The position numbers and the translations under genes were made by a program. The notes under the pieces were generated by a model, which saw only the letters and a program-made list of their open reading frames with translations, was not told where the DNA came from and did no database searches. Source: an uncultured Actinomycetes bacterium (GTDB lineage Bacteria > Actinomycetota > Thermoleophilia > Gaiellales > Gaiellaceae). Taken from it: a DNA stretch of 64,000 nt. Of the stretch, positions 24,141-57,624 are shown piece after piece. The stretch covers positions 72,075 through 136,074 of the forward strand of contig CAVOXT010000002.1 in NCBI GenBank assembly GCA_963700495.1, read 5' to 3'. Each line of letters opens with the position of its first letter. Positions within the stretch are counted from its first letter, which is position 1.

Positions 24141-25628
24141 GTGATCCGGATCCGCGTCGAGCCGCGCGTAGACGCAGACGTGATCGTCGTCGGTGCCGGC
24201 CCGGCCGGAGCTGCGACAGCGGTGCACCTGGCGCGCGGCGGGATCGACGTCCTGCTCGTCGACCGCAGTCGCTTCCCCCGCGACAAGATCTGCGGCGACT
24301 TCGTCGGCCCGGTGGCGCTCGCCGAGCTCGAGTCGCTGGGCGTCGACCGCCTTGGGAACTTCAGTGAGACGAACATCGTCAGGCGCGCGGGGGTCCACCT
24401 CGACGGGCGACAAATCGTCGAGCGGCCGTTTCCGGCGGGCCACGGCTTCGCGCCGTACGGGCGGGTGATCCCGCGCCTGGACTTCGACGCCTGGGTCGTC
24501 GAAGCCGCGGACCGGGCCGGTGTCCGGATCGTCGAGGACTTCCACGTGGCGGAGCTCGGTCACACGCAGGACGGTGCCGTGGCCTTGCAGGAGGCGCAGA
24601 ACGGCCGGACGCTGCACGCGCGGATCGTGATCGGCGCAGACGGCAGCAACTCGACCGTGGCGCGGGCGCTTCGCGGCGGCTCGCCCCCGCGCGCCGATCG
24701 AATCATCGCCGTGCGCGCGTACTACACGGGGGTCGGCGGCCCGGACGACCGTGCCGACCTGTACTTCTCGTCGGACAGCTTCCCGGGCTACTACTGGCTC
24801 TTCCCGACGGGTGCGTCGGCGGCGAACGTCGGGGTCGGGATGGTCCTCGAGACGGTGCCTCCGACGCGCGACCACCTCCGGGACCTGCTCGCCCGCCTGG
24901 TCGAGCGGGACGAGTCGCTGCGCGGGCGGCTCGGCGGTGCCACCCTCGAGGGGAAGGTCGTCGGGTGGCCGCTGACGACGTACAACCCCGGTCTCCCGCT
25001 CGTCGGCGACGGGCTCGTGCTCGTCGGCGACGCGGGCGGCCTGATCAACTCCCTCAACGGCGAGGGCATCCAGTACGCGCTCCTGAGCGCGCGCTGGGCT
25101 GCCGAGACCGTTGCGGAGGCACTTACCGCCGGGGACGTCTCGCACGACGCACTCGTGCCGTACGCCGAACGCGTCGACCGTGAGCTCCGCTACGACCTCG
25201 GCCTCTCCCGGCTCGTCGTCCAGCTGATCTCGTACCGGGCGCTCAATCCCGTCTGGCTGCTCGCGCTCCAGGTGATCGCCGCACGATCGCGCGGCAATCC
25301 CGCGTACGCGGAGACGACAGGCGGCGTGCTCGCGGGTGTCGTTCCCGCTCAGGCGGTCCTGACCCCGAGCATCGTCGCGCAGACGGTCGGACAGGCCGCG
25401 TGGACTGCCGGCGCGCAGCCGGCGCGCGCGGTTCTGCGCCGGCCGATGACCGCGGCTGAGATCGGCGTCGACGTGGCGCGAACGGCGTTCGATCTTGCGT
25501 ACGACGTCGCGCGGGAACGCCGCGGCGTCGTCCGTTGGGCTTCGTCTTCGGCTGTGACGGCTGCGGCGCTCGCGGGGCGTGCGTCGCGCGACGCGGTTCG
25601 CCTACCCGGTCGTCGCGCGAGGACCTGA
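24141..25628 (+). CDS. geranylgeranyl-reductase-family FAD oxidoreductase, paralogue 1
   Basis: Motifs are 'DVIVVGAGPAGAATA', 'FPRDKICGDFV', 'VIGADGSNS' and 'LVGDAGGLINSLNGEGI'. The protein has about 100 extra C-terminal residues. Confidence 0.85.
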   Translation: MIRIRVEPRVDADVIVVGAGPAGAATAVHLARGGIDVLLVDRSRFPRDKICGDFVGPVALAELESLGVDRLGNFSETNIVRRAGVHLDGRQIVERPFPAGHGFAPYGRVIPRLDFDAWVVEAADRAGVRIVEDFHVAELGHTQDGAVALQEAQNGRTLHARIVIGADGSNSTVARALRGGSPPRADRIIAVRAYYTGVGGPDDRADLYFSSDSFPGYYWLFPTGASAANVGVGMVLETVPPTRDHLRDLLARLVERDESLRGRLGGATLEGKVVGWPLTTYNPGLPLVGDGLVLVGDAGGLINSLNGEGIQYALLSARWAAETVAEALTAGDVSHDALVPYAERVDRELRYDLGLSRLVVQLISYRALNPVWLLALQVIAARSRGNPAYAETTGGVLAGVVPAQAVLTPSIVAQTVGQAAWTAGAQPARAVLRRPMTAAEIGVDVARTAFDLAYDVARERRGVVRWASSSAVTAAALAGRASRDAVRLPGRRART

Positions 25629-25633
25629 AGCCG

Positions 25634-26677
25634 TCAGAGGTCGCGCTCGACCATGTAGTCGACGATCTGCTCGATGAACCTGCGGTCGTCTCCGGGCGGC
25701 GCGTCCGCGTAGGCGACCTCGAACTCCTCCAGCGCGCCCGCGGCCAACTCGCGCGCGCACTCCCGCGCGTACTCGACGCACTCGTACTTCGCCATCATCC
25801 TGTACACCCACCGGACGTCACGGAGGGCACGCTCCGTGCGAGAGGCCGAGAGAAACCGCTCCATCCGTTCGTGCTCGGTCTCGGTGGCCGCGTTGAGGAC
25901 GTGGATCAACATCAGCGTTCGCTTGCCCTCCCAGACGTCGCCGCCGATCTCCTTTCCGTACAGCTCCCGGTCACCGATGAGGTTGAGCAGGTCGTCCTGA
26001 ATCTGAAACGCAGCGCCCATGAAGTACCCGAAACGGTTGAACCGGTCGAGGTCGATGCTGATGTCCCCGGTCCCGATGAGCGCGCCGATACGGCACGGAT
26101 GGATGCACGTGTACCAGCAAGTCTTCTTCAGGATCATCCGCAGGTAGTCGTCATCGGTGAGGCGGCAGTCGTTGTCCCGAACCCACCCGAGCTCCATCGC
26201 CTGACCTTCGACGGACTGCAGCACCATGTGCTGGATCTCCTCGAAGACCCGCCAAGTCATCGTCGGACCGAGCACCGACAGGTTCTCCATCAGCGGCTGA
26301 ATGCTCAGGACGTTCATCGCGTCGCCGACGTTGACGGCGATCCCGAGGCCGTGCTCGGCGTGCAACGTCGGCCGCCCGCGCCGGTACTCGCTGCCGTCCT
26401 CGACGTCGTCGTGGACGAGGAACGCGTTGTGGAAGAACTCGATCGTCACTGCCGACCGGAGCACACTTTCGATGCTGCCGCCGAACGCGCGACAGGTGCC
26501 GATGCAGAGCCCCGGACGGAGACCCTTCCCCGGCCGGGTCGGATACGACGGGACGAGGTCGTAGAGATACCTGCGGGGCTCGCGCACAGGAACGCTGCCG
26601 AGCAGCGCCCGGCGGGTCAGGTCGTGGTAGTCGCGGAGCCGTTCCTCCACGAACTCACGGGCCGCTGCTTCCTGCAT
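25634..26677 (-). CDS. trans-polyprenyl (GGPP-type) diphosphate synthase
   Basis: The first Asp-rich motif is 'FLVHDDVED' and the second is 'FQIQDDLLN'. 'GKGLRP' is also present. Confidence 0.9.
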   Translation of the reverse strand: MQEAAAREFVEERLRDYHDLTRRALLGSVPVREPRRYLYDLVPSYPTRPGKGLRPGLCIGTCRAFGGSIESVLRSAVTIEFFHNAFLVHDDVEDGSEYRRGRPTLHAEHGLGIAVNVGDAMNVLSIQPLMENLSVLGPTMTWRVFEEIQHMVLQSVEGQAMELGWVRDNDCRLTDDDYLRMILKKTCWYTCIHPCRIGALIGTGDISIDLDRFNRFGYFMGAAFQIQDDLLNLIGDRELYGKEIGGDVWEGKRTLMLIHVLNAATETEHERMERFLSASRTERALRDVRWVYRMMAKYECVEYARECARELAAGALEEFEVAYADAPPGDDRRFIEQIVDYMVERDL

Positions 26678-26692
26678 CGCTCGCGACCGGCG

Positions 26693-27457
26693 CTAGTCGT
26701 CGACGCTGACGACCAGAACTGCGCGCACGCGTTCGAGCTTTGAAGCGAGCACGAGGCCCGAGTAGACGCCCGGCGCCGTCCCTTTCGGCACCTCGACGCT
26801 GATCGTCACGCTCTCACGATCGTGCGCCGGAATCGTGAGGCTGGCGGGCTCGAAGGTGACGTGGCTCGCGGCGATCTTCTCCCCGCCGGCGTTCACGAGG
26901 TCGGTCGCCTGGAACGTGAACTCGGCCGTCGGCGTGTCGCCGTCGTTCTCGAGCGAGAACGGCACGGTCGCGGAGCCCCCGGCCGGAACGTCACCGGGCA
27001 GCTTGATCGTCGGCGCGTCCGACGGTGACCCGACGGCCGCCGGCGATCCGTCGCCGACCGAGATGCGCTGTACGAGCCCGCCGAGCGATCGGGTCGGGAC
27101 GTTCAGAAGGTCGAGCACGATGTCGACGACCTCGTGCGCGTCCCTGCGGAAGCGCGCCATCACTTCGTCGGGGTTGGTCGAGCGCATCTCGGCGACGTCC
27201 ACGAGCCGCGCCTCGATCTGCTTCGCTGCCCCGATCCCCGCGGCGAGCTCCTCCTCGAGGATCGTCGAGGCCTGCGAGACGATCCGCGATGCGCTGCGTG
27301 CGAGGCCCTTCACCACTCCGGCGTCCACCGAGACACGCGTACCGGCCTCCGGCGCAGCCGGCGGCGGGGGCGGTGGCTTGGGCGGCTTGCGCTTGGGCGG
27401 CCCGGGAGGCGCCGCCTCGGGCTCCGGCGATTCGCCGGCGCTCCTAGCCCGGGCCAT
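26693..27457 (-). CDS. hypothetical protein (Pro-rich N-terminus, Ig/CARDB-like C-terminal beta domain)
   Basis: 254 aa. It carries 'PKRKPPKPPPPPPAAPE' and then a beta-rich tail, 'ATVPFSLENDGDTPTAEFTF..TISVEVPKGTAPGVYSG'. It overlaps the upstream gene by 14 nt. Confidence 0.55.
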   Translation of the reverse strand: MARARSAGESPEPEAAPPGPPKRKPPKPPPPPPAAPEAGTRVSVDAGVVKGLARSASRIVSQASTILEEELAAGIGAAKQIEARLVDVAEMRSTNPDEVMARFRRDAHEVVDIVLDLLNVPTRSLGGLVQRISVGDGSPAAVGSPSDAPTIKLPGDVPAGGSATVPFSLENDGDTPTAEFTFQATDLVNAGGEKIAASHVTFEPASLTIPAHDRESVTISVEVPKGTAPGVYSGLVLASKLERVRAVLVVSVDD

Positions 27458-27773
27458 GCGTCGGCGTCGGCGTCTTGTCGTCGCGGCAGTTGAAGAGGCG
27501 TGTCAGACCCTTGATCGTGATCGCGGCGACGGGGCGGTCGAACACGTCGATCGCGATCGTGTACGCGCTCTCGGCGCAGATCGGCTCACACACCTGGATG
27601 CAGACGGGGATGACCCCGCGCGCAGCCAGGTTCATGTCCATCTCGACCTGGAACGGCTGCTCGTCCGAGCGGACGACCACGTGGGCGGGCGCATCCTTCT
27701 CGAAGCGATGGTCGAGGAGCGCCTGATCCTTCGGCCATTCGACGATTCTCACGAGCTGCTCATCTGGCGGCAT
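27444..27773 (-). CDS. hypothetical protein
   Basis: Frame of ORF 27444..27812. The start is taken at the ATG at 27773, which is preceded by a strong GGAAGGAGG Shine-Dalgarno sequence. No motif recognised. Confidence 0.6.
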   Translation of the reverse strand: MPPDEQLVRIVEWPKDQALLDHRFEKDAPAHVVVRSDEQPFQVEMDMNLAARGVIPVCIQVCEPICAESAYTIAIDVFDRPVAAITIKGLTRLFNCRDDKTPTPTHGPG

Positions 27774-27838
27774 GGCCCCTCCTTCCGCTCGGGCGCAAGC
27801 TAGAGATACCACACGATCGGCCTGCGGGCTAGTTCACA

Positions 27839-28402
27839 TCACCCCGGAGCTCCGTACAGCTTCACCGTCCGATAGAGCTTCACGCGCTGTCGGCCGGAAA
27901 CGAGGTCGGACACGAGCCGATCGAGGCCTTGACAGGCGTCGTCGAGCTGTTCTACGACCATCGTGGCGGCATCCGTTCCGAAGCCGGCGTGATAGCGCTT
28001 GAGCTCGAGGATCGAGATCCGGTCGAGGAGGTTTCCCGGCGTGATCAGGGCAGCCGGCTGCGTCTCGCTGCTGCCGTCGCGGTCACCCAGCTCCCGGATG
28101 AGGCGCTCGTCGAGCGCGTCGATACAGGCAACACGTCGGCGATTCGAGTCGTCGATGTCCCGCTTCAGCGCGGCCAGGCGGTTGGAGTTGTCGTAGCGCA
28201 CGCGGCACTCGTCCTCCAGATGCCACTGGAAACAGTTGATCAGGCACAGCTGGACCACTGAGCCCATCCAGTCGTTTTCTATCGCCGGAAAAGCCGCGGC
28301 TGCGGCGTCCCACTCGAGCGGCGGCTCACGTCTGTGCCACCTGTCGATGAGCGCCTCACACGCTGCGGCGAGTTCGCGACCCGGCGGGATCGACACGACC
28401 AA
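27839..28402 (-). CDS. DUF4254 family protein
   Basis: 'LCLINCFQWHLEDECR' matches the DUF4254 core (N-x-x-LWH-x-ED) as I recall it. 187 aa. Confidence 0.6.
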   Translation of the reverse strand: MVVSIPPGRELAAACEALIDRWHRREPPLEWDAAAAAFPAIENDWMGSVVQLCLINCFQWHLEDECRVRYDNSNRLAALKRDIDDSNRRRVACIDALDERLIRELGDRDGSSETQPAALITPGNLLDRISILELKRYHAGFGTDAATMVVEQLDDACQGLDRLVSDLVSGRQRVKLYRTVKLYGAPG

Positions 28403-28470
28403 GTCGCCGCAGTCTACGCGGTGACCGGCATCGGTTATCGTGCATCCGAGATTCCGAACGGAGGCGTGAG

Positions 28471-28857
28471 TTGATCAACCGCCCTACTGCTCTGGATCCT
28501 GGCGAGCTTCTCTCCCGGTTCAGGGCGTCCTACCGCAACTACTACAAGCTCTGGACGGCGACGTCCGTTCCGGACGGCACGGTCCTGGAGACGCCGGCAG
28601 CGCACCCGCTCGGCGAGGACGATCTGCCCGACGGCGCCCGCCGCCTGCTCGCGGCGTACCGCGAGGAGCATCCCAAGGAGCAGTTCGTCTTCCTCAAGTA
28701 CATGCGGATCGTCGACGGGGAGCCGGAGCTCGTAGTCGAGGACGAGTCCGACCTCCCGCCCGAGGAGGAGCTCCTCACGTTGAGCCAGACGGTCACGCTC
28801 AACACCAACCACCACGTTCGGGTGATCACCGACATCTTCGTCGCCCGGCGCGCCTGA
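28471..28857 (+). CDS. hypothetical protein
   Basis: 128 aa with protein-like composition and a TTG start. The stop overlaps the next ATG (TGATG). Confidence 0.5.
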   Translation: MINRPTALDPGELLSRFRASYRNYYKLWTATSVPDGTVLETPAAHPLGEDDLPDGARRLLAAYREEHPKEQFVFLKYMRIVDGEPELVVEDESDLPPEEELLTLSQTVTLNTNHHVRVITDIFVARRA

Positions 28858-29996
28858 TGGCCAACGACCCGTACGCCTTGAAGGGCGTGACGCCTCGGGT
28901 CGAAGTGACGGACGGCAACCGGGACCGGCCGCTGGTGCTGCTGCTGCACGGCGCGAAAGGAACGATCCTGGACATGGTGGACCCCGCCGCCGGGCCGGAC
29001 AACAACTACGACCACCTCGCCCCCCTCAGGCCGGAAGTCGCGATCGGACAGAGCGTGTATCCGGGGATAGGCATCTGGTCGTGCTGCGAGCTCGATGACA
29101 AGAAGGACGTTCGCAGCTGGCGCGACGTGCTCAGAGAGAACGACTTCGCGACGGCCGCGTACAGCCAGGTGGATCCCGACGGGCTCCTCGCTGCGCCGAT
29201 CGAGCAGCTTGTCGGCGTCGTGCAGACGCTGAAGCTGCCGCAGGACGGGCTCACCATCCCGGATGGCAAGGACTTGCCGGGCGCGTACAAGCCGTACGGG
29301 CGCATCGTGCTGCTCGCACACAGCCGTGGCGGCCTCCTGTCGCGGGCGTTCCTCAAGTCGTTCCCCGCCGAAGCGACGTCGATCACGACCCTCATCACCC
29401 TGCACTCCCCACACACCGGGAGCAGCCTGGGCAACCTCGCGGTCGACGTCACCGGCGCCATCGAGGACCTGCGCTCGGTGCTCGGCAACGTGGTCATCGA
29501 TGCGCTGGGTTGGCTTCGTGACATGGCCAACGCCCCGGTGTACACCGAGCTTGGTGTCGGCAGTCCGTTCCTGACCGACCTCGCCACGGACGAACTCCCG
29601 CTGAAGGGGATCGAGTACTTCACTTTCGGTGGCGTCAGCGTTCGCCTGACGCGCATCAAACAGTGGGTGTACACACTCGAGAGCGCTCTGCCGAAGTGGC
29701 GCTGGCCTCCGTACGACCACGCCCGGGTCGAGACCGAGGTGCCGGGCGCGTCGCCGGTCGCCAACTCTCTCCCGGACGTGATCGAGGAGCTCACCGAGGG
29801 CCGCGGTGACCTGCTCACGGCCGACAGCCGGACGCGCCTGCGGTTCGCCGACGACACGGTCGCAACCCACCAGACGAACCCGATCAACCATGCCGAGGCG
29901 CTGTGGGACCCGATCCTCCAGCAGCAGGTGCTGCGGATCCTCGGCGTCGAGATTCCAGGAGGTGACCGGCCGGGTGTCCCACCCTTCTGGGGATAA
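28857..29996 (+). CDS. alpha/beta hydrolase (lipase / PGAP1-like)
   Basis: 'LLLHGAKG', the nucleophile elbow 'LLAHSRGG' and 'LHSPHTGS' are present. Confidence 0.75.
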   Translation: MANDPYALKGVTPRVEVTDGNRDRPLVLLLHGAKGTILDMVDPAAGPDNNYDHLAPLRPEVAIGQSVYPGIGIWSCCELDDKKDVRSWRDVLRENDFATAAYSQVDPDGLLAAPIEQLVGVVQTLKLPQDGLTIPDGKDLPGAYKPYGRIVLLAHSRGGLLSRAFLKSFPAEATSITTLITLHSPHTGSSLGNLAVDVTGAIEDLRSVLGNVVIDALGWLRDMANAPVYTELGVGSPFLTDLATDELPLKGIEYFTFGGVSVRLTRIKQWVYTLESALPKWRWPPYDHARVETEVPGASPVANSLPDVIEELTEGRGDLLTADSRTRLRFADDTVATHQTNPINHAEALWDPILQQQVLRILGVEIPGGDRPGVPPFWG

Positions 29997-30336
29997 GAGC
30001 GACGAGCAGGCCATCCGGGAGCGAGCCGTAGCGGCCGGCCGCGCGGCCGAGCGCGTCGTCGCGCTCGCGCTCGATCGACTCGAGGGCCTGTCGCTCTGGG
30101 CGCTCGAGCAGGCGGCCGACGCCCAGCCGGAGAGCGATCGGCTGCGCACGGCCGAGCAGCGCCTGAGCCGGGCGCGGTCGTTCGCGGCCCCCCTCCCCCG
30201 GGTCGCAGGGCGGCTGGTCGCCGGCTCGACCTACTTCGGCGGCCGGTTGGCCCCGGAGGTGGTCCGCTCCGCCAAGGAGATCCTGGGCGAGACGTCGGAG
30301 TTCCTGAACTCCGACCGCGACCCGCAGGACGACTGA
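29997..30336 (+). CDS. helical hypothetical ORF without a canonical start (may be a C-terminal extension of the hydrolase via a frame break)
   Basis: This is the tail of ORF 29806..30336 (SDEQAIRERAVAAGRAAERVVALALDRLEGLSLW..). It looks protein-like, but it has no ATG/GTG/TTG until its last third. Confidence 0.3.
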
Positions 30337-30405: not shown

Positions 30406-31379
30406 ATGCCTTCCTGGCCCAGATCGGGCGCGAGCTCGAGCCGCACTTCCAGCGCGCGATCGACCGCATTCCCGAGATCGAGTCGCTCAAGGAGGGTGTC
30501 GTCTTCCAGGTGCTGAGCGGCGGCAAGCGCGTCAGGGCCGCGCTGTGCGCAGCCGTGTGCGAGGTCTTCTCCGGCAGCTACCGCCAGGCGCTCGGTTTCG
30601 CAGCCGCGCTGGAGCACCTCCAGAACTTCACGCTCGTGCACGACGACATCGCCGACGGTGACGTGGAGCGGCGCGGCCGGGAGTCGGCCTGGAAGCGCTT
30701 CGGGCTCGCACACGGAATCAACATCGGCGACGTCTTCATACCGCTCAGCGGGCTGGCGATTCTCGAGACCGACCTGGACGTCCAGACGAAGATGCGTCTG
30801 TTCCGGGTTCTCGCCGACAACGGCCTGGAGGTCGTCGAGGGGCAGAGCCTCGACATCAACCTGCGGGCGAACGACGCCCCGAGCGAGGCGGCGTACGTGG
30901 CCTGCACCGCCAAGAAGACCGGCGCCTTCTTCGCGATGGCGATCGTCGGCGGCGGAGTCATCGGCGGCGCGACAGAGCACCAGCTCGAGGACCTCGGGGT
31001 GTTCGCGCACGACGCCGGCGTGGCGTTCCAGATCAAGGACGACCTGCTCGACGTGATCGGAGGGAAGGGCCGCACGCTGGGATCCGACGTCATGGAAGGC
31101 AAGCGGACGGTGATGGTCGCCTACGCGCTCGAGCGGGCATCGGAGTCAGACGGACAGCGGCTCGTGGAGATCCTCAACCGGCATCGCGACCGCACCACCG
31201 CCTCGGACGTCGCCTGGGTCCACCGGCTATTCGACCGGACGGGCGCGCGGGCGCGCGCCGAGGCGACCGCCGAGCGGCGCATGTCTGAGGCGATCGACCG
31301 CCTGCACAGCCTGCCCCAGACGTCGGCGAAGTACCGCTTCCTTCGACTCTGCCGGTACCTCACGCGACGGGAGCACTGA
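30406..31379 (+). CDS. trans-polyprenyl diphosphate synthase, second copy
   Basis: ORF 30510..31379 carries 'LVHDDIADGD', 'FQIKDDLLD' and 'GGKRVRAAL'. The family N-terminus (AFLAQIGRELEPHFQRAIDRIPEIESLKEGVVFQ) continues upstream in frame with no start codon. The ATG at 30406 is one base out of frame; 'atg gcc ttc' may have become 'atgccttc'. Confidence 0.8.
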
Positions 31380-31381
31380 GC

Positions 31382-31531: not shown

Positions 31532-32197
31532 TTGCTCGGAGACGAGGGCTCTTCGGCTGCCCAACTCGCGCCCTGGCAGGAACCGCCCGTGCGGGTCCCG
31601 ATGCTCAGCGGCCGAGTCAGCGCCACCGACCGGCTGAGCTGGTGGTTCCGGCCGACGGCGGACGGCCGCGATCCGTGGGACAGCTTCTTCGAGCAGTCGG
31701 CGACCTCGTTCGTCGAGGAGGCCGCGTCGCCGCCGGCTGGTCCGGCCGCGCCTGCGGAGCCGCCGGGCCGGCGTGCCGCCCTGCGGCTTCTCCTTGCCGA
31801 GCCCGACGAGGAGATGATGGATTCGGACGCCGAAGCCGTGGTCACGTGCCTCTACGACTTCGTGCACGCAGTGGGGCGAGGCGACGTCGTAACCGCGGTC
31901 GAGGAGTGCGTCGCGCCCGAGTACCACGCGATGGAAGACGACGTCGAGGTCGATCGCGACGCGCTGGCTGCGCAGCTCCACGCTCAGCTCGACCGGTTGC
32001 GGGGCTGGGAGATCGACGTCTCGCTCGTCGAGATACCCGAGCCGATCCTGCATCCGGACGGCATCCTCGTCTACACGGAGTTCCAGATCGAGGCCACCAA
32101 GGACGGAGCTCGACAGACTGTCCTCCACCGCCGGTTGGCGGTGTTCCGCCAGGGGCGCGATCGACGCTGGCGGATCGCCGCACTGAGCCCCGTCTGA
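31532..32197 (+). CDS. hypothetical protein (C-terminal NTF2/SnoaL-like fold suspected)
   Basis: 221 aa. The second half (VVTCLYDFVHAVGRGDVVTAVEECVAPEYHAMEDD..RRWRIAAL) has an NTF2-like pattern. The start is uncertain (TTG at 31532 or ATG at 31601). Confidence 0.5.
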   Translation: MLGDEGSSAAQLAPWQEPPVRVPMLSGRVSATDRLSWWFRPTADGRDPWDSFFEQSATSFVEEAASPPAGPAAPAEPPGRRAALRLLLAEPDEEMMDSDAEAVVTCLYDFVHAVGRGDVVTAVEECVAPEYHAMEDDVEVDRDALAAQLHAQLDRLRGWEIDVSLVEIPEPILHPDGILVYTEFQIEATKDGARQTVLHRRLAVFRQGRDRRWRIAALSPV

Positions 32198-32203
32198 GGC
32201 GGC

Positions 32204-49816: not shown

Positions 49817-50159
49817 CGTCTACGGGCTGCACCGCGTGCGCCTCCGCCCCGGCGTCGACCCGGAGGAGTTCGAGCGGTTCACGCTCGCGGAGTTCCTGCC
49901 GGCGCTTCAGGCGCTGCACGCTCCGGGTGTGCAGTTCGCGCTCCTGAAAGCAGAGCGCGGCGCGGACGCGGGCGAGTATCAGTTCATGATGGTCTTCGAC
50001 AGCGTCGAGACCCGCGATCGGTACTTCCCGGAGGAAGTTCGCGCGTCGGACGAGCTGATCGAGCTGATCCAGCCGCTCGCACCGCTCGCCGAGGTCTGGG
50101 AGGGGCTGTCGGCCCGCGAGAAGACGGACTGGCTGAGGCTCGGGGACGGCCCGTCGTGA
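49809..50159 (+). CDS. hypothetical small protein (alpha+beta barrel-like?)
   Basis: 116 aa with protein-like composition. It has an 8-nt overlap upstream and a GTGA overlap downstream. Confidence 0.5.
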   Translation: MPSVYGLHRVRLRPGVDPEEFERFTLAEFLPALQALHAPGVQFALLKAERGADAGEYQFMMVFDSVETRDRYFPEEVRASDELIELIQPLAPLAEVWEGLSAREKTDWLRLGDGPS

Positions 50160-52045
50160 GGCAGCTGCCGAACGTCACGGCGTTGCCGCCGCTGCTGCGG
50201 CGTTCCCGGTCCAACACCAACGGGCTGCTCGAGCTGCTGCGGTATTCGAGCTCCCCGCTGCGGAATCGTGTTCGGGCGCGCTTCCCACGAGTCGAGGCGG
50301 AACGGATTCTGGGGATCGCCAGCACCGGGCACGGCGCCAGCCTGACCTACCTCGATGCCTCCGGCGTCGTCCGAAGCTCACAGCTCGAGCGCTGGACCGG
50401 AACGAAACACATGATGCTGTTCTCGCGCGATGAGGACGAGGCTCTCCGCGAGCCGAGCTCGAAGATCGACAAGACGATCAACCACCTCTTCACCCACGGC
50501 TACGGGCGTTTCCCGGACAGCCGGGTCTTCGAAGACACGATCGACTCGTGGCGCGAGTGGTTGCTGCGCGGGCTGGACGTCGACGTCGGCAGCATCGACC
50601 TCGTCGTGACGAGCGACGGACACTTCGCGACCGGGTGGGCTCGCCTCGGCCCCCACCTCCGGCGCTGGTTCCCCAACGCAACCATCGTCAGGGCGATCGA
50701 GCATCACGAGATCCACCAGCGCCAGGCCTTCTGGGCCAGCGGCCTCGACGAGGCAGCGGTGCTCACGCTCGACAGCGCAGGCGAGGCGCTCCCGCGGCGC
50801 CGCTGGCGAAAGCTCGCCGGAACGCTCTCCGTGATGAACCAGGCCGGCGAGTCGCACATCGTCCGCGAATGGCTGTCCCCGCAGATGAGCTCCGGCGCGA
50901 TCTTCGACGCCGCCACCCACCACGTCGGCTTCCGGCAGGGCGAGGAGGGCAAGACGATGGGCCTCTCGGCGTACGGGTCCGGCGAGCTGTTCGAGTCGCT
51001 GCGACCTCAACTCAGCCTGCACGCGGACGGAGGCTTCTCCTTCCTCGCCCTGACCGACTTCGAGGCCGCGCTCGCGCGCTACACGCCCAAGCGGGAGCAG
51101 GGCGAGGAGATCACCGCCCGGCACATGGAGGTGGCGTTCGCCGGGCAAGCGATCGTGGAGCTGATCGTCAGCAACGCCTGGCGCGCGGCACTCGAGTCGA
51201 CGGGCCGCCGCGACCTGGCATACGCCGGCGGGGTGGCGTTGAACAGCGTGGCCAACGGCAGGGCATGGCGCGAGGTGGGCCCGAGAAGCGTCTACATCCC
51301 GCCGAACGCAGGCGACGCGGGTCAGAGCCTCGGCTGCGCACTGTTCGGCGCGTACGAGCTCGCAGGCTGGGAGCCGCCGGACGAAGAGCTGGCCGAGTAT
51401 CTCGGCCCCACCTACGGCGAAGACGCGATCGCGAGCGCCGTGGCGTCGAACGACCATCCAACGACCCGCCCCGCCGCATTGGAGGAAGTGGTTGCGGCGT
51501 GTGTCGCCAACGGGCACATCGTCGCCCGGTTCGACGGCGGCGCGGAGTTCGGGCCGCGGGCGCTCGGGAACCGGAGCATCCTGGCCGATCCTCGCCGTCC
51601 CGGCATGAAGGACTACCTCAACCTCCGGGTCAAGCACCGCGAGTCGTTCCGGCCCTTCGCGCCGGCCGTGCTCGACGACCACGCCGGCGAATGGTTCGAG
51701 CTCGACGTGCCGAGCGCCTACATGCTGCGGGTGGTGCCGATCAGGCCCGACAAACTGGGGCAGATACCAGCAGTGGCGCACGTCGACGGGACCGCGAGGG
51801 TCCAGACGCTGTCCGAGCCGCAGAACCCCGAATTCTGGCGCACGATCTCGGCCTTTCGCGACAGAACCGGCGTGCCGCTCGTGCTCAACACCTCCTTCAA
51901 CCTGGCCGGGAGGCCGATCGTGGAGACACCGGCGGACGCGGTCGAGTGCTTCGCCGGTTCAGAGATCGACGTGCTCGCCGTCGGGCCGTTCGTCATCTCG
52001 AAGAAGCCGCTGGAGGAGTACCTCGCAACCGACTCCGGAGCTTGA
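50156..52045 (+). CDS. NodU/CmcH-family carbamoyltransferase
   Basis: Motifs are 'ILGIASTGHGAS', 'GGVALNSVANG', 'PNAGDAGQSLG', 'GPRALGNRSILADP', 'KHRESFRPFAP' and 'HVDGTARVQT'. Confidence 0.85.
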   Translation: MRQLPNVTALPPLLRRSRSNTNGLLELLRYSSSPLRNRVRARFPRVEAERILGIASTGHGASLTYLDASGVVRSSQLERWTGTKHMMLFSRDEDEALREPSSKIDKTINHLFTHGYGRFPDSRVFEDTIDSWREWLLRGLDVDVGSIDLVVTSDGHFATGWARLGPHLRRWFPNATIVRAIEHHEIHQRQAFWASGLDEAAVLTLDSAGEALPRRRWRKLAGTLSVMNQAGESHIVREWLSPQMSSGAIFDAATHHVGFRQGEEGKTMGLSAYGSGELFESLRPQLSLHADGGFSFLALTDFEAALARYTPKREQGEEITARHMEVAFAGQAIVELIVSNAWRAALESTGRRDLAYAGGVALNSVANGRAWREVGPRSVYIPPNAGDAGQSLGCALFGAYELAGWEPPDEELAEYLGPTYGEDAIASAVASNDHPTTRPAALEEVVAACVANGHIVARFDGGAEFGPRALGNRSILADPRRPGMKDYLNLRVKHRESFRPFAPAVLDDHAGEWFELDVPSAYMLRVVPIRPDKLGQIPAVAHVDGTARVQTLSEPQNPEFWRTISAFRDRTGVPLVLNTSFNLAGRPIVETPADAVECFAGSEIDVLAVGPFVISKKPLEEYLATDSGA

Positions 52046-52052
52046 GGCAGCG

Positions 52053-53475
52053 ATGAGGGTCCTCTTCATCACCTACTGCTTCGGGGATCCAGCGGGCCAG
52101 GCGCTGATCGGGGTCTACAAGCGCGGGCTTCGCGTCGCTCTCGAGCTCCACGACCGCGGCCACGACGTGCTCTTCGACTGCACCGGACGCGGCAGCTACC
52201 GCGACGACCTGACCGAGTTCGCGGAGGACCGGATCCACTTCGTCGACCTGGGCCTCTACGACGGCGAGAACGACGGCTCGGAGCGGAGCCGGCAGAACTC
52301 CCTGCAGGCGATGTCGCGTTGCCGGCCCGACCTCGTCGTCGTCGGCGAAGCACCACTTGCCGGGACGCTCCTGGAGGCAACTCTGTGCGCGGTCGAGCTC
52401 GGCATACCGGTCGCGCTCCTCGACAACGCCTACAACGCGCGAGCGGTCCGGCGTTTCCTCAGGGACCACGGCGGGATGGTGGATGCCGTCGTTCTCACCG
52501 GCCCGAGCTGCGCGCACACGGGGGCGCCGCCCGCACACCTTCGGCAGGTACCGCCTTTCGTGACGAGCGCGCGGTCGGAGGCAGCGCTGCTGGTCGAGGA
52601 ACGCCTGGGGCTTCGCGCAGAGCGACTCGTCTGCATCCTGGCCTATGACGGCAAGGTCGAGCGACTCGGTTTCTCGCTCATCGAGAGCCTCGACGCGCCT
52701 GAGGCGGCGTACGTCTTCATGTCGAGAGATCCCGAGGAGTGTGAGCGGCGTGCGGCGGCGCTTCCCGAAGATCTGAGGGCGCGAGTCCGGGTGCTCGAGC
52801 TGCTCCCGGATCCGCTCCTGTTCGGACTGATCGAGCTGTCCAGCCTCGCGGTCGTCAAGTACGGGTTCATGCAGGTCACCGAATGCATGTCGCTCCGCAC
52901 ACCGGTGATCTGCGCGTACCACGAGGGCCCAACGTGGCTCGATCTGCTTCCTGGAGCGTGCCGGTCGTTCGTGCACGCGGCGGAGCACGAAGACGCAGAC
53001 CCGGCAACGGTCGCCGCGGCCGGGAGGTTTCTCGAGGTCGGCGAGCGGGCGATGGCCTCCATCCACGACGGCGAGTTCGATGCGAGCGTTCGGGCGGCCG
53101 ACTTCCTGGAGGCCGTACCGGCAGAGCCAGCGCCGAGAAGCGTCGACCGAAGCCGTCCGAAAGTTCCCCGAGAAGCAGGTGCGCGCCGCCGTCCGCGCAG
53201 CAACGGGGCGCCGGTCGGTCAGCGTCCTGCTCATGCGCGCGATGCGGCTACGTTCGCTCCCGGGCGAGGAGGTGCATTCGCTCGTCTGCCGCTACACGAT
53301 CGACGGCGCCGAGCGCTTCCTGCGGCTCTGGGGGCACCGCTACGCCTCGGGCCGGGCGGTCAAGCGCGGACGGAGGGAGGCCGCTCGCTCCGGGAGACGG
53401 GTGCTCTTCGCGTCGCCGCGCGAGCGCGTGCTGATCGAATCGGATCTTGGTCAATCGATGCTTCCGCCGCTGTAG
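52053..53475 (+). pseudogene. GT-B-like protein with novel C-terminal domain, tandem copy A (frame break near 53125)
   Basis: This is the first 358 codons of ORF 52053..54908 plus ORF 53080..53475. By comparison with copy B, the C-terminus (SVSVLLMRAMRLRSLPGEEVHSLVCRY..RFLRLWGHRYASGRA) is in the other frame and ends at the TAG at 53473-53475. Confidence 0.7.
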
Positions 53476-53477
53476 GG

Positions 53478-54908
53478 ATGAGGGTCCTCTTCATCACCTA
53501 CTGCTTCGGGGAGGTCTCGGGGCAGGCTCTCATCGGGGTCTACAAGCGCGGGCTGCGCATCGCTCTCGAGCTCCACGACCGAGGCCACGAGGTGCTCTTC
53601 GACTGCACCGGACGCGGCACCTACCACGATGACCTGACCGAGCTCGCGGACCAGCGGCTGCAGTTCGTCGACCTCAACCTCGACGCCGTCGACGAGGAAG
53701 GCCTGGAGCGGAGCCGCGAGAGGGCCCTGCAGGCGATGTCCCGCTGCCGGCCCGATCTCGTCGTGGTGGGCGAGGCGCCGATGCTCGGCACGCTGCTCGA
53801 GGCCACCCTGTGCGCCGTCGAGCTCGGCATACCGGTCGCGCTGCTCGACAACGCCTACAGCGCGCACGCGGTGCCGTACTTCCTTCGGAACCACGGCGGG
53901 ATGATGGACGGCGTTGTCCTGACAGGCCCGAGCTGCACGCATGCGGAGACGGCGCCCGCACACGTCCGCCAGGTTCCGCCGTTCGTGACGACCGCCTCGT
54001 CGGAGGCAGCCCAGCTGGTCGAGCACCTCGGGCTCCGACAGGAGCGCTTGGTCTGCGTCCTGGCGTATGACTCGAAGGTCGAGGGGCTCGGCTTCTCGCT
54101 CGTCGAGCGCCTGCGCGCACCCGACATCGATGTTCTCTTCTTGTCCCGATCCCCAGAGGAGAGCGAGCGGACGGCAGCCCGTCTGCCGGCGGAGCTCCGC
54201 GCCCGCGTCCGGGTGCTCGGCTTGCTTCCGGATCCGCTTCTCTTCGGACTGATCGAGCTGTCCAGGCTCGCGGTCGTCAAGTGCGGGTTCATGCAGGTCA
54301 CCGAGTGCATGGCGCTCAGGACCCCGGTGATCTGCGCATACCACGACACCGCGACGTGGCTCCGGTGGGTGCCCCGCGCCTATCTGCCGTTCGTCCACAT
54401 TGCGGAGCACGACGAGGCGGACCGAGCGACACTTGCCGCCGCCGCGCGTCTCTTCGACGTCCCCGAGCAGGCGATGAGCTCGATCCATGACGGGTCGTTC
54501 GACGCGACAGCCAGCGCGGCCGACTTCCTCGAAGGCCTGTCCGCGGAGCAGCGTCCGGAGACATGGACCGAGACCGTCGACGTCTTCCCCGAGACACAGG
54601 TGCGAGAGGCACTGCGCACGGCTGTGGGAGGACAGGAGGTCAGCCTGCTGCTGCTGCGCGCGATGCGCCTGCGCGCCCTCCCGCGCGAGGAGGTGCATTC
54701 GCTCGTCTGCCGGTGCAGGGTCGACGGCGGCGAGCACTTCCTTCGCCTGTGGGGTCACCGCTACGCCTCGGGACGCGCGGCGAAGCGGGCGCAGCGGGAG
54801 GCCGTTCGCTCAGGGCGACAGGTGCTCTTCGCGTCGCCGCGCCGGCGCGTGCTGATCGAACCGGACCTCGGTCAGGAGCTGCTGCCGCCGTTGCTCGGCG
54901 CCCACTGA
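53478..54908 (+). CDS. GT-B-like protein with novel C-terminal domain, tandem copy B
   Basis: This is the internal Met476 of ORF 52053..54908. The sequence 'MRVLFITYCFGEVSGQALIGVYKRGL..' is colinear with copy A along its full length. Confidence 0.75.
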   Translation: MRVLFITYCFGEVSGQALIGVYKRGLRIALELHDRGHEVLFDCTGRGTYHDDLTELADQRLQFVDLNLDAVDEEGLERSRERALQAMSRCRPDLVVVGEAPMLGTLLEATLCAVELGIPVALLDNAYSAHAVPYFLRNHGGMMDGVVLTGPSCTHAETAPAHVRQVPPFVTTASSEAAQLVEHLGLRQERLVCVLAYDSKVEGLGFSLVERLRAPDIDVLFLSRSPEESERTAARLPAELRARVRVLGLLPDPLLFGLIELSRLAVVKCGFMQVTECMALRTPVICAYHDTATWLRWVPRAYLPFVHIAEHDEADRATLAAAARLFDVPEQAMSSIHDGSFDATASAADFLEGLSAEQRPETWTETVDVFPETQVREALRTAVGGQEVSLLLLRAMRLRALPREEVHSLVCRCRVDGGEHFLRLWGHRYASGRAAKRAQREAVRSGRQVLFASPRRRVLIEPDLGQELLPPLLGAH

Positions 54909-56377
54909 TCGCGCAGCGCGTGACTGAGAGCCTGCGCGGCAAACTCGAACGCCGCAGGGGCAAGCGCGGCCGACCAGCCGACCACCGCGCCCGGATTCCG
55001 AATCGTCGCGCGGGCTGCGGCACGCGGAGTGCCGCCTCCCGCACCGCGGCCGCCGAGCGCCAGGACGGCCGTTCCGGCGGCCGATCGCACGGTCTGCTCG
55101 ATCGCCGCCGTGATCATGCGCCGAGACGCAGCGTCACGCGCCGGAAGCACACCGACGAGGATGCCGCCGGCGGTGTCGGCGAAGACAGGATCGCGCCGCG
55201 CGCGGGCGGCGAGCGTCCGGAGCGTCCCCAGCCAGATCCCGTTCAACGACCGGTTCTTGATCAGCGCCACGATCATCTGCGCGAGCGCCATGTCGTAGCG
55301 CACGTGCTCGCGCACCTGTCGGGCGTACGGGGTCAGCCCTTCCTGCGAGCAGTCGCCGCTTCTGATCGCCGTGCCCACTGCGTTCGCCGCCCACTGCCCC
55401 GACAGCAACGCGTACTGAATCCCCTCGCCGTTCAGCGGGTTGATCAGGCCGGCGGCGTCACCGACCAGCACCATCCGGTCGCCGACGAGCGGCTGCCGCG
55501 GGTCGAAGGTCGCGAGAGGCCAGCCCACGATCTTGCCTTCGAGACGCGCACCGTCGAGCCGCTCGCCGAGAGCACGATCGCGGCGGACGAGCTCGAGCAG
55601 TAGCTCGCGCAGGTGTTGCGTCGTTCGGGGCACCGTCTGAAGCGCCATGCCGACTCCCACGTTCGCTTCGCCGTCGCCGTTCGGGAAGACCCAGGTGTAG
55701 CCGGGGAACGACTGTTCGGAGAAGTACAGATCCGCGCGGTCCGCTCGGCCGTTGACGCCCGTGTAGTAGCCGCGCACGGCGATGATCCGACGGTCCCTCC
55801 GCGAGTCTCCGCCCCGAAGGATGCGGGCCATCTGCGAGTTCGAGCCGTCCGCGCCTACGACGACTCGGGCCCGCAGCGAGCGCTTCGCCTGCCCCGCCTG
55901 CACGACGACCTGCACCCCGTCGAGGTCGCGGCGGACCTCCGCGATCTTGCAACCGTCGAGCAGCGCAGCCCCGGACTCGATCGCGGTCTCGACAAGCCAC
56001 TGGTCGAGGACGGTACGAGGGATCACGCGACCGAGTGCGGGCATGCCTTCGACCGGCGGGAGCGAGCGAACGATCAGCTCTTCCCCGTCCAGGAAGAGTG
56101 CGGCTTCGCGCACGCAGTTGGTGCGCAGGTACTCCTTTCGCCCGCCGAAGCCGAGCCGTTGCAGCTCGAGCAGGGCGACCGGGCCGACGAAGTCTCCGCA
56201 CACCTTGTCGCGCGGGAAACGCTTGTGGTCGAGCAGGACCACGCTGAATCCCGCGCGGCACAGGTGGGCCGCTGTGGCGGCACCCGCCGGCCCGGCGCCG
56301 ACGACAACGACGTCGGCGTCGTGGGCCTGGGCGGGTCGGTGTGCGACTACCGGCGGTCGGTCAGCGCTTGCGGACAA
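54872..56377 (-). CDS. geranylgeranyl-reductase-family FAD oxidoreductase, paralogue 2
   Basis: 'DVVVVGAGPAGAATA', 'FPRDKVCGDFV', 'VVGADGSNS' and 'LVGDAAGLINPLNGEGI' are colinear with the 24141..25628 gene, but on the opposite strand. Confidence 0.85.
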   Translation of the reverse strand: MSASADRPPVVAHRPAQAHDADVVVVGAGPAGAATAAHLCRAGFSVVLLDHKRFPRDKVCGDFVGPVALLELQRLGFGGRKEYLRTNCVREAALFLDGEELIVRSLPPVEGMPALGRVIPRTVLDQWLVETAIESGAALLDGCKIAEVRRDLDGVQVVVQAGQAKRSLRARVVVGADGSNSQMARILRGGDSRRDRRIIAVRGYYTGVNGRADRADLYFSEQSFPGYTWVFPNGDGEANVGVGMALQTVPRTTQHLRELLLELVRRDRALGERLDGARLEGKIVGWPLATFDPRQPLVGDRMVLVGDAAGLINPLNGEGIQYALLSGQWAANAVGTAIRSGDCSQEGLTPYARQVREHVRYDMALAQMIVALIKNRSLNGIWLGTLRTLAARARRDPVFADTAGGILVGVLPARDAASRRMITAAIEQTVRSAAGTAVLALGGRGAGGGTPRAAARATIRNPGAVVGWSAALAPAAFEFAAQALSHALRDQWAPSNGGSSS

Positions 56378-56756
56378 GTCCGAGCTGCGTGGCGGCTCCG
56401 AGCTCGTCAGTCAGTCCGAAGGTCTCGACTACGCGACCTTTCTCGAACCGAAGAATGGTGATCCCACTGACGTCCAGCGCCTTGCCGGTGCCCTTGACGC
56501 TGCCGAACAGTGCGTGCTTTGCGGCTCCCTTGTGGGTGCCGGTCGCCGACCACCGAACGACGACCTTTTCGCCTTCCGCGATCATGTCTTCGAGCTCGAT
56601 CTTGAGGTCAGGCAACGCCCGCGTAGCAGCCTTGGCACTCGCAGCGCCTCCTTCCTTCAGGTTGGTCCCGAGCACCTTCTGGGCGGCGGCAAGGTCGCCG
56701 GTGGCGAGCTTGTCGAAGACACGCTTGGTCAGCGCGCGATTCTCTTTTGCCGGCAT
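56361..56756 (-). CDS. SnoaL-like ester/polyketide cyclase family protein
   Basis: ORF 56361..56801, with the start taken at MPAKENRAL. Motifs are 'PDLKIELEDMIAEGEKVVVRWSATGTHKG' and 'ILRFEKGRVVETF'. Confidence 0.7.
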   Translation of the reverse strand: MPAKENRALTKRVFDKLATGDLAAAQKVLGTNLKEGGAASAKAATRALPDLKIELEDMIAEGEKVVVRWSATGTHKGAAKHALFGSVKGTGKALDVSGITILRFEKGRVVETFGLTDELGAATQLGLVRKR

Positions 56757-56853
56757 TTCGAACTCCCCTCTGACGGACTTGGCGCGAAGTCGCTTCACCA
56801 CGTCGTCGGCAAGGGCGAGCAGTGGCTGGCCGCTGGACTTCGTACTGCCGACT

Positions 56854-57624
56854 TTAGCGCAGTGAACTCGCCGTGTCAGTTCGAAATTCCAGCGCGTGCG
56901 TCACCAGCCGCCAGTCGTCACCTTCGACCGCGAGGGCGGCGGCGAAGCCGTCGTCCGCTGCCGGCTCGACGAGCTTCCACCGTTGCGGCTCGTCGGCACC
57001 TCTCGCCGACCTGAGCAACGCGGGAGGAGCCCCCGGCTCGAGCGACACGTCAAAGGAGTCCAGCCGCATCGCAAGGCCGGTTCCACACGCTTTGATGTAC
57101 GCCTCCTTGCGCGTCCAGCACCGGTAGAAAGCCGCCACCCGGTCGTGTGCAGGCAGAGCCTTCAGCGACGCTGCCTCGGCCGGTGAGAAGAAGTGGTCGG
57201 CGATCCCGACGACGTCGCGGTCGCGTCGAACGTCTTCGAGATCGACCCCAAGCTCGCGGTCGACGCTGACCGCGATCAGCGCCCTGTCCCCGGAGTGGGC
57301 GAGATTGAAGCGCATCCCGCCGTTGCGGGCGAGATACGGCTTTCCATATCGGGCACGGGCGAACTGGACATCCTCCGGAGCAACTCCCAGATAGCCGCCC
57401 AGGAGATGCCGGAGCACGCCATGGGCGACGGAGTAGCGAACGCGGTGCCGCTCGAAGACGAAGCGCCCCGCGCGGGCGCACTCGTCCGGGTCGAGGCTGC
57501 TCCCGAGCGCCCGAAGCGCGTCCTCGGGCGGTTCGAGCCGCGTGCGCCACACGTGCACCTCGCCTCGGCGGATGACGAGATCGTCCGCGCGAACGGGAAA
57601 TACGACTGTCGACCGGGCCGCCAA
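56854..57624 (-). CDS. Sfp-type 4'-phosphopantetheinyl transferase
   Basis: Motifs are 'FNLAHSGD', 'LGVDLE' and 'CWTRKEAYIKA'. Confidence 0.85.
   Translation of the reverse strand: MAARSTVVFPVRADDLVIRRGEVHVWRTRLEPPEDALRALGSSLDPDECARAGRFVFERHRVRYSVAHGVLRHLLGGYLGVAPEDVQFARARYGKPYLARNGGMRFNLAHSGDRALIAVSVDRELGVDLEDVRRDRDVVGIADHFFSPAEAASLKALPAHDRVAAFYRCWTRKEAYIKACGTGLAMRLDSFDVSLEPGAPPALLRSARGADEPQRWKLVEPAADDGFAAALAVEGDDWRLVTHALEFRTDTASSLR

Follow-up and report, generated by a model that had tools for sequence, protein, structure and literature searches.

Positions 24141–57624 of the window analysed here, a 64,000-nucleotide stretch from an uncultured bacterium of the Gaiellaceae (Actinomycetota; GenBank assembly GCA_963700495.1, contig CAVOXT010000002.1), carry one conserved gene cluster, which is found only in uncultured bacteria and spans several phyla. 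Its genes (Table 1) bring together isoprenoid-type enzymes, a set resembling a fatty-acid synthase (FAS) and sugar-modifying enzymes, and we hold with moderate confidence that they are one co-inherited biosynthetic cluster for a hybrid lipid. An initial annotation of this stretch had proposed a single biosynthetic island in a combination that does not correspond to a described cluster. Both parts of that proposal are borne out, the former by synteny across several phyla and the latter by the results of our searches: no characterized whole-cluster counterpart was found, all homologues are unnamed or 'hypothetical', a literature search found no paper combining these parts, literature searches on DUF4254, on 8PAK and on myxobacterial cyclases gave nothing relevant, and an exact look-up of the window's own proteins returned no match.

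Conservation of the cluster across phyla

Linkage was assessed by tblastn of the cluster proteins against 33 loci (designated by L numbers) from metagenome-assembled genomes (MAGs) of Actinomycetota, Chloroflexota, Myxococcota and Acidobacteriota and from soil metagenomes, with each gene counted only over loci that are long enough. The same collinear core recurs in L001–L005, L008, L009, L013, L014, L017, L020–L022, L024 and L033, and consists, in order, of the NTF2-like g11, the 562-residue g12, the alpha/alpha-toroid protein g13, the 641-residue fusion protein m14, a GT4 glycosyltransferase, two short-chain dehydrogenases/reductases (SDR1, the enoyl reductase or ER, and SDR2, the ketoreductase or KR), an acyl carrier protein (ACP), a dehydratase (DH1), a ketosynthase (KS), a second dehydratase (DH2), a chain-length-factor-like (CLF) paralogue of the KS, an alpha/beta hydrolase and a Methyltransf_24 protein, optionally followed by a DUF4185 protein. 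Upstream of the toroid gene, g11 is present in 19 of 22 loci and g12 in 22 of 24, and m14 follows downstream in 24 of 26; the KS is found in 15 of 16 loci and the CLF in 13 of 14. The family assignments and this conserved linkage are direct observations.

The cluster is rare. The g13 family, which is small and unnamed, accounts for 85 of 5.8 billion clustered proteins, and it marks eight loci among 185,579 species genomes and 22 further loci in JGI metagenomes. All eight of the genome loci lie in MAGs, assigned by their record titles to Actinomycetota, two 'Firmicutes', Promineifilaceae, Anaerolineae, Thermoanaerobaculia, Myxococcaceae and Enhygromyxa, and members of the m14 family also occur in MAGs named Gemmatimonadales, Dormibacteraeota, Bryobacteraceae and Sulfotelmatobacter.

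Around this core the gene content varies. A prenyl synthase or a geranylgeranyl reductase (GGR) lies within 10 kb in nine of the 13 long loci. The carbamoyltransferase (CarbT), the tandem-pair family (dupA/dupB), the 4'-phosphopantetheinyl transferase (PPTase) and a ligase–ACP–acyltransferase fusion are linked to the core in shuffled positions in L003, L006, L009, L014, L020 and L033; the PPTase is linked in L003, L006, L014, L017, L020 and L022, and in L017 the SnoaL–PPTase–GGR trio stays together but has switched ends. It could be supposed that independent isoprenoid, fatty-acid/polyketide and sugar clusters merely lie side by side here by chance, and the differences between loci in GGR, the prenyl synthase PPS1, DUF4254 and some tailoring genes are what such a juxtaposition would lead one to expect. 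This explanation fails for the core, because the same collinear order recurs across several phyla, with the terpenoid-type g13 and m14 inside the same invariant operon as the GT4 and FAS genes, and we give it next to no probability.

Distant versions of the cluster (L008, 2091–7453; L006, 3473–5227; L011, 11438–12208) add genes for a PIG-L deacetylase, SnoaL, a CMAS-like (cyclopropane/mycolic-acid-type) methyltransferase, GNAT, a DUF3419 (BtaA-like) protein and a B12-binding radical S-adenosylmethionine (SAM) protein with DUF4070. The PIG-L, DUF3419, GNAT, CMAS-like and B12-radical-SAM genes are consistent with tailoring of a lipid-linked amino sugar or hydroxyl group.

Isoprenoid-type and acyl-chain genes

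In the window the cluster is bracketed by two inverted paralogues of the FAD-dependent GGR family, GGR1 and GGR2, as initially annotated with the right coordinates and with quoted peptides that are indeed present. The two proteins are 53% identical over 461 residues (E = 1e-135) and encoded on opposite strands, and both match PF22578 and exceed the curated cut-off of the NCBIfam model TIGR02032 (158.8 bits). The bracket itself holds for this window and is not a conserved architecture: in other loci GGR lies elsewhere or is absent within 10 kb. Assignment of GGR1 and GGR2 as MenJ-type menaquinone reductases was rejected, with scores of 144–165 bits against a cut-off of 700 bits for the MenJ model, and their scores are likewise far under the cut-offs for ChlP and DGGGPL reductase equivalogs.

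The two genes annotated as trans-polyprenyl synthases, PPS1 and PPS2, match PF00348 with 191.6 and 168.7 bits, respectively, and their first and second Asp-rich motifs (both DDxxD; FARM and SARM) are invariant in alignment A7. Their products are predicted to be short-chain (C15–C20), because an aromatic residue occupies position −4 or −5 relative to the first DDxxD and because their best NCBIfam matches are the short-chain IdsA/GGPP synthase models.

The toroid protein g13, recognized as such in the initial annotation, is in its AlphaFold2 (AF2) model an (alpha/alpha)6 barrel with the fold of class II terpene cyclases, of the beta-gamma type of squalene-hopene cyclase (SHC) and copalyl diphosphate synthase (CPS). 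The model has a pLDDT of 87, and its top 40 Foldseek matches are all class II terpene cyclases (E values of 1e-11 to 1e-5), the best being AsDMS, the 345-residue enzymes 8pak/8paj, MstE and SsDMS, with E values of around 1e-11 and TM scores of 0.6–0.69; the g13 profile also matches SHC in the PDB (E = 1e-6). As in the monodomain class II cyclases (MstE and the myxobacterial 8pak/8paj) and the drimenyl-diphosphate and drimenol synthases, the protein comprises a single barrel of about 350 residues, whereas its identity to these enzymes is only 13–19%, its DxDD-like motif is partly conserved and its family of 85 is separate and unnamed. The cluster also differs from MstE-type systems in that no UbiA/ABBA prenyltransferase partner is present.

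Downstream of g13, the fusion protein m14 begins with a domain that AF2 confidently models as all-alpha. Two invariant motifs, RxxDDxxDxH..YKGR and AQxLNDxxDxxxD..GQPN, lie about 130 residues apart at helix ends, in the model at the C-terminal ends, which is the two-Asp-motif arrangement of class I terpenoid synthases. Residues D119, D120, D123, N249 and D250 are invariant, D253 and D257 are invariant in alignments A2/A6, and the first of these two is nearly invariant in A4. The initial label of a class I terpenoid-synthase-like gene thus stands as far as the two Asp-rich motifs go; no search supports it. Foldseek with the full-length model against the PDB and BFVD returned methyltransferases only, the fused methyltransferase domain swamping the N-terminal domain, and the methyltransferase domain is structurally closest to TcaB9, KijD1 and MtmC, which are sugar C-methyltransferases with a zinc ribbon.

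The second group of core genes encodes the acyl-chain machinery. The set of a KS, a Cys-less KS, two hotdog dehydratases, reductase and carrier given in the initial annotation is upheld by Pfam and NCBIfam, the KS retaining its triad and the partner lacking all three residues, and discrete KS, KR, DH, ER and ACP components are present as in a type II FAS. One of the genes labelled simply as a reductase, SDR1, turns out to be a FabL-like ER: the FabL model scores 277 bits, below its cut-off of 328 bits, and the next best model scores 191. For both DH1 and DH2 the FabZ models score best, though below cut-off, and the His and Glu are retained in both. The ACP (39478–40060 in the window; 15575–16156 in L013) has 193 residues instead of the usual 80 or so, and its conserved C-terminal extension, an uncommon feature in such a protein, terminates with a CxxC...CxxC zinc ribbon.

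In outline this set recalls the aryl-polyene (APE) and highly reducing type II polyketide synthase (PKS) clusters, the analogy drawn initially, since both place a KS with a Cys-less partner, two hotdog dehydratases, a KR, a discrete ACP, an adenylating enzyme, an acyltransferase, a glycosyltransferase and a methyltransferase in one operon. APE clusters are characterized by the lack of an ER, by an APE-type KS, by ApeI/ApeP dehydratases and by an ApeK thioesterase, LolA/MMPL export and an aryl starter ligase. A pigment cluster of this type that had picked up terpenoid and sugar genes would account for the parts list, and in precomputed tables the DH1 orthologues carry the ApeI-like family PF22818; this match was not recovered by direct Pfam scanning even at an E value of 10. 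The KS is nearest to the housekeeping FabF (Thermus thermophilus FabF, 356 bits, as the best PDB match, compared with 255 for the actinorhodin KS and 212 for the ishigamide KS), a FabL-like ER belongs to the invariant core, terpenoid genes are part of the operon, Actinomycetota and Chloroflexota MAGs are among the hosts, and we found in the island neither an APE-type thioesterase nor LolA/MMPL export genes nor genes for an aryl starter. Owing to the KS, the ER and these missing genes a pigment product, as also suggested in the initial annotation, is unlikely; we rejected an APE pigment cluster as the identity of this island and regard it as very unlikely. The machinery appears FAS-like and, because a complete reducing cycle is encoded (FabF-like KS, KR, dehydratases, FabL-like ER, ACP and PPTase), a saturated chain seems more likely than a polyenic one.

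Another comparison by gene content is the rhizobial acpXL-fabZXL-fabF2XL-fabF1XL-adhA2XL-lpxXL locus, which makes the very-long-chain fatty acid of lipid A: there too a private ACP, a FabZ-like dehydratase, two FabF-like KS, a dehydrogenase and a dedicated acyltransferase provide a special acyl chain for a glycolipid. To our knowledge, the rhizobial locus holds no terpenoid, carbamoyl or GT1/GT4 genes. The predicted acyl-AMP-ligase–carrier–acyltransferase fusion was also recovered, with AMP-binding and PP-binding domains followed by 240 residues that match the PlsC-type family PF01553 weakly (19.5 bits against a cut-off of 23) and contain HRHWLD, which fits the HxxxxD motif. By domain architecture this 828-residue protein is like ElbD of the myxobacterial elb ether-lipid operon, in which acyl-CoA-synthetase-like (ACS), ACP and AGPAT-like domains are joined to a FAR1-like reductase domain (PMC9131029). 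The ACS–ACP–AGPAT-like order in one chain is shared, whereas the FAR1-like domain is missing from the fusion and elbA/B/C/E are not present; ElbD-like homologues without the reductase domain have been reported in other phyla (PMC9131029).

Proposed pathway and product

Pfam and NCBIfam scans agree with the initial assignments of the GT4 and GT1 proteins, the NodU-type carbamoyltransferase, two methyltransferases (Methyltransf_23 and Methyltransf_24), two alpha/beta hydrolases, the SnoaL-like protein and the Sfp-type PPTase, and the GT4, GT1, carbamoyltransferase and DUF4185 assignments are secure. The carbamoyltransferase has both Carbam_trans_N and Carbam_trans_C domains (75.4 and 224.3 bits), and with 146 bits against 1000 it is not a NodU equivalog. 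The 'GT9-like' label given to g12 was confirmed by no search: the GT9 profile did not match, six members gave no Pfam match at an E value of 10, the best GT9 structure (3tov) aligned with an E value of 0.24 over 77 residues, and the likeness consists of a DSxxxHxA-like motif only. The g12 family has 194 representatives among 1.84e9 proteins, in which D384 and H389, within DSFxAHxAP, and K297 are invariant. Nor did any search confirm the two 'GT-B-like' genes, dupA and dupB: our own searches gave no significant Pfam, NCBIfam or PDB profile match, and precomputed Glyco_trans_4 Pfam matches exist for seven of the 52 proteins in their family. DUF4185 is a family of endo-D-arabinanases, GH183 (PMC10115798).

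From these families we infer the following substrates, reaction sequence and product. The two short-chain prenyl synthases would supply a prenyl diphosphate of C15–C20 size, g13 may cyclize it in a protonation-initiated reaction, and the Asp-rich all-alpha domain of m14 could ionize or transfer the diphosphate while the fused methyltransferase adds a methyl group; GGR1 and GGR2 would saturate the leftover double bonds. The private type II FAS-like set (FabF-like KS and Cys-less partner, FabG-like KR, two FabZ-like dehydratases, FabL-like ER and an ACP primed by the PPTase) may build a dedicated, largely saturated acyl chain, and the ElbD-like fusion would activate and transfer an acyl chain. 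Sugars would be added by the GT4 and GT1 enzymes, and probably also by g12 and the tandem pair, and the head could be carbamoylated by the NodU-type enzyme and methylated by the Methyltransf_24 enzyme. The product is probably a decorated lipid, for which our best guess is a glycosylated, carbamoylated terpenoid-fatty-acyl lipid.

Several points weigh against this reading. The island holds no recognizable enzyme for joining the isoprenoid and acyl parts. In the DxDD-like motif of g13 only the first Asp (D127) is invariant; family members variously have N, A, S, C or D at the position of the middle Asp. The N-terminal domain of m14 has no significant Pfam or PDB sequence match, and hhalign against the cluster's prenyl synthases gave a probability of 0.4%, though DDxxD..YKGR was aligned to DDxxD..RRGR; its putative class I assignment is at the level of motifs, because it gained no support from sequence or profile searches and the methyltransferase domain dominated the fold searches. 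The sugar-transferase roles of g12 and of dupA/dupB are putative and motif-based. Neither PPS nor GGR was seen within 10 kb in L006, L014, L030 and L033. No FabD or FabH (malonyl-CoA:ACP transacylase and initiating KS III) is found among the 33 genes, so that housekeeping enzymes would have to supply these functions. No transporter or flippase was recognized in the island, and nearly all of the proteins are predicted to be soluble.

The same genes could be read differently, with the cluster making an acylated, carbamoylated envelope oligosaccharide or glycolipid and the isoprenoid genes only making or modifying a polyprenyl-phosphate carrier or anchor, part-saturated by GGR as in dolichol-type carriers, so that there would be no hybrid terpenoid core. 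The many sugar-related genes (GT4, GT1, the GH183-family DUF4185 protein and CarbT, with PIG-L deacetylases in the variants), the accessory status of PPS and GGR (present in nine of 13 loci) and the resemblance of the m14 methyltransferase domain to nucleoside-diphosphate-sugar C-methyltransferases are in keeping with this. Yet the invariant core includes both g13, with its resemblance to class II cyclases, and the Asp-rich domain of m14, neither of which is needed for a carrier lipid; the PPS sequences are short-chain-like (C15–C20) and not of the C50–C55 type; and the cluster lacks a polyprenyl-phosphate glycosyl-1-phosphate transferase, a flippase and any other membrane protein. We therefore regard a carrier role as the main alternative, and an unlikely one.

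Returning to the hybrid lipid, the moenomycin-type phosphoglycolipid clusters offer a comparison: these use unusual enzymes with the prenyl-synthase fold for the isoprenoid lipid, together with several glycosyltransferases, a carbamoyltransferase and a methyltransferase. By description the present cluster shares the isoprenoid enzymes, glycosyltransferases, carbamoyltransferase and methyltransferase, and differs in that no MoeO5-type enzyme was recognized; we know of no FAS set in moenomycin clusters. The hopanoid genes hpnI/hpnJ/hpnK tailor the side chain to give hopanoid glucosamine and cyclitol ethers, and cluster variants resemble them in having a PIG-L-family deacetylase gene and a B12-radical-SAM gene beside glycosyltransferase genes, whereas no squalene-hopene cyclase or hpnH gene is present and the window itself is without the PIG-L and B12-radical-SAM genes.

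As a tentative possibility, the product may belong to a new class of bacterial lipid, in which one molecule would unite a cyclized saturated isoprenoid, a custom acyl chain and a sugar head that is both carbamoylated and methylated, and which would be made by uncultured soil bacteria of several phyla through at least four enzyme families without a described member (g12, g13, the m14 N-terminal domain and the tandem pair). If so, the cluster would amount to a compact set of instructions for making a new type of lipid, shared widely among uncultured Actinomycetota, Chloroflexota, Myxococcota and Acidobacteriota. Several protein families now without annotation would gain functions, a family of monodomain class II cyclases and a new Asp-rich isoprenoid-enzyme domain would be added to those known, and the cluster would provide geochemists and lipidomics workers with a gene marker of an unassigned lipid.

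Frameshifts, boundaries and neighbouring genes

Seven genes of the window (m14, GT4, SDR1, SDR2, ACP, KS and dupA) are broken by about 37 frameshifting indels, which the initial annotation had overlooked, and annotation pipelines would miscall these seven core genes as pseudogenes. The coding frame switches repeatedly from about 35.0 to 40.7 kb, one SDR is spread across three frames and the N-terminus of the KS is lost. Relative to a contig of ENA sample ERZ25039502 (loci L013 and L010), which is 96% identical to window positions 23920–64000, there are 36 indels of lengths not divisible by three in 35001–40700 and one more frameshift at 53124; the latter joins two tandem paralogous genes, dupA and dupB, into the single open reading frame (ORF) of 951 residues at 52053–54908, another point missed initially. 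In the related contig the broken genes are intact, with products of 641, 356, 256, 250, 193, 149, 433 and 473 residues. That contig is itself broken in 27380–32900, where 23 indels (22 of them frameshifting) were counted and the window is intact, and over 23920–44967 the indels are confined to these two sharp blocks, with none between or outside. The two-block pattern fits consensus errors of long-read assemblies and not pseudogenes, because the relative is intact where the window is broken and has its own error block elsewhere.

On the indel count one might take the cluster for a decaying relic with seven pseudogenes in this genome. The intact copies of all these genes in the 96%-identical contig and the blockwise indels led us to reject real pseudogenization, a frameshifted look is also seen in other genes of the window, and a relic is extremely unlikely. 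In the purine-catabolism neighbourhood (12227–13925 and 16083–17363) the adenine deaminase is spread over two ORFs and the C-terminus of a PuuD-like urate oxidase is garbled past CxxCH; these are probably further frameshift errors.

The window has a G+C content of about 70%, so lists of ORFs are crowded with spurious frames. Genes were therefore chosen by third-position G+C and then translated and scanned against Pfam and NCBIfam, which gave 33 genes within 24141–57624 (Table 1). Those in 28471–54908 are all on the forward strand with overlapping stop and start codons, an operon structure, and are preceded by a short divergent set on the reverse strand (25634–28402) and followed by GGR2, SnoaL and the PPTase, also on the reverse strand (54872–57624), the last two forming the right end of the island. 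These limits are supported by three observations: just beyond the PPTase, synteny with the 96%-identical contig breaks down (about 430 bp unaligned, with different gene calls); to the left of GGR, locus L001 carries IspH and HxlR genes in place of the YjbQ gene of the window; and the left flank of the window encodes purine catabolism.

Table 1. Genes assigned to the cluster, with positions in the window
Gene	Positions	Strand	Assignment	Evidence and conservation
GGR1	24141..25628	+	FAD geranylgeranyl-reductase family, 495 aa	TIGR02032 208.7 bits; PF22578 GGR_cat
PPS1	25634..26677	-	Short-chain trans-prenyl diphosphate synthase, 347 aa	PF00348 E 1.8e-56; Phe at -4 of first DDxxD
g04	26693..27457	-	Weak Ig/fn3-like C-terminus	Sub-threshold Pfam matches only; kept in L001, L002, L008, L017
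g05	27444..27773	-	109 aa	No family match; kept in L001, L002, L017
DUF4254	27839..28402	-	DUF4254 protein	PF14063 E 3e-21; core-linked in 7/13 long loci
g07	28471..28857	+	128 aa	Kept in L002, L003, L020, L021
Hydrolase	28857..29996	+	Alpha/beta hydrolase, PGAP1-like, 379 aa	PF07819 E 8.8e-07
g09	29962..30336	+	124 aa	Adjoins PPS2 in L002, L003, L005, L020, L021
PPS2	30510..31379	+	N-terminally short trans-prenyl diphosphate synthase, 289 aa	PF00348 E 1.8e-49; Phe at -5 of first DDxxD
g11	31532..32197	+	NTF2/DUF4440-like; first gene of invariant core	PF14534, weak
g12	32204..33892	+	562 aa, no family match	No Pfam/NCBIfam match
g13	33889..34950	+	Monodomain class II terpene-cyclase-like, 353 aa	Foldseek on AF2 model (TM 0.67 for top matches); SHC profile match
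m14	34947..36875	+	641-aa fusion: all-alpha domain (DDxxD + NDxxDxxxD), Cys4 zinc ribbon, SAM methyltransferase	Frameshifted in window; intact in L013, L001, L002
GT4	36877..37949	+	GT4 glycosyltransferase	PF00534/PF13692; frameshifted in window, intact 356 aa in L013
SDR1	37946..38721	+	FabL-like enoyl-ACP reductase	Split over three frames in window
SDR2	38724..39481	+	FabG-type 3-oxoacyl-ACP reductase	PRK12826.1-2 247.7 bits > 222 cut-off; frameshifted in window
ACP	39478..40060	+	ACP with C-terminal Cys4 zinc-ribbon extension, 193 aa	PF00550, NCBIfam ACP models, zinc-ribbon match; frameshifted in window
DH1	40057..40506	+	FabZ-like dehydratase	PF07977 E 2.7e-18; FabZ models
KS	40503..41805	+	FabF-like, Cys-His-His triad	PRK07314 436.6 bits > 387 cut-off; one frameshift at 40661 in window
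DH2	41805..42269	+	FabZ-like dehydratase	PF07977 E 1.5e-11
CLF	42257..43543	+	KS paralogue without Cys, His, His (chain-length-factor-like)	All three triad residues missing
Hydrolase	43554..44393	+	Alpha/beta hydrolase with N-terminal hydrophobic anchor	Pfam scan
Methyltransf_24	44393..45016	+	SAM methyltransferase	PF13578 E 2.4e-19
DUF4185	45013..46065	+	DUF4185 protein	PF13810
Fusion	46062..48548	+	Acyl-AMP ligase + ACP + PlsC-type acyltransferase, 828 aa, ElbD-like without reductase domain	PF00501 E 4e-63, PF00550
GT1	48545..49816	+	GT1-family glycosyltransferase	PF06722, PF03033
g31	49809..50159	+	116 aa	No significant match
CarbT	50156..52045	+	NodU/CmcH-type carbamoyltransferase	PF16861 E 9e-67; PF02543
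dupA	52053..53475	+	First tandem paralogue, unnamed family	Frameshift at 53124 in window
dupB	53478..54908	+	Second tandem paralogue, 476 aa	Same unnamed family as dupA
GGR2	54872..56377	-	FAD geranylgeranyl-reductase family, 501 aa	TIGR02032 224.4 bits
SnoaL	56361..56801	-	SnoaL-like protein	PF07366 E 2.3e-21
PPTase	56854..57624	-	Sfp-type 4'-phosphopantetheinyl transferase	PF01648 + PF22624; ACPS and AASDHPPT N-terminal domains

Some neighbouring genes deserve mention. In L001, a relative with 70% identity, the IspH/LytB gene of the methylerythritol phosphate pathway (1942–2967, reverse strand) lies directly upstream of the GGR gene. Just outside the cluster in the window, a lone ORF of 99 residues (57799–58098, reverse strand) belongs to the phage T4 gp19 tail-tube family (E = 5.6e-22); it had no match in a tblastn scan of the 96%-identical contig, and most of it falls in the unaligned stretch. 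A further lipid-modifying set, comprising two CMAS-type lipid methyltransferases and a fatty-acid desaturase in tandem (5324–8550, reverse strand), is located 16 kb upstream of the island. The protein encoded at 745–4155 (reverse strand), a large signalling ATPase of 1136 residues, has double zinc ribbons together with an adenylate/guanylate cyclase domain, AAA_16 and TPR, and a small predicted secreted protein with a collagen-like GPAGPAGPAGPAGPQGPAGPQG repeat is encoded at 58572–59153 (forward strand).

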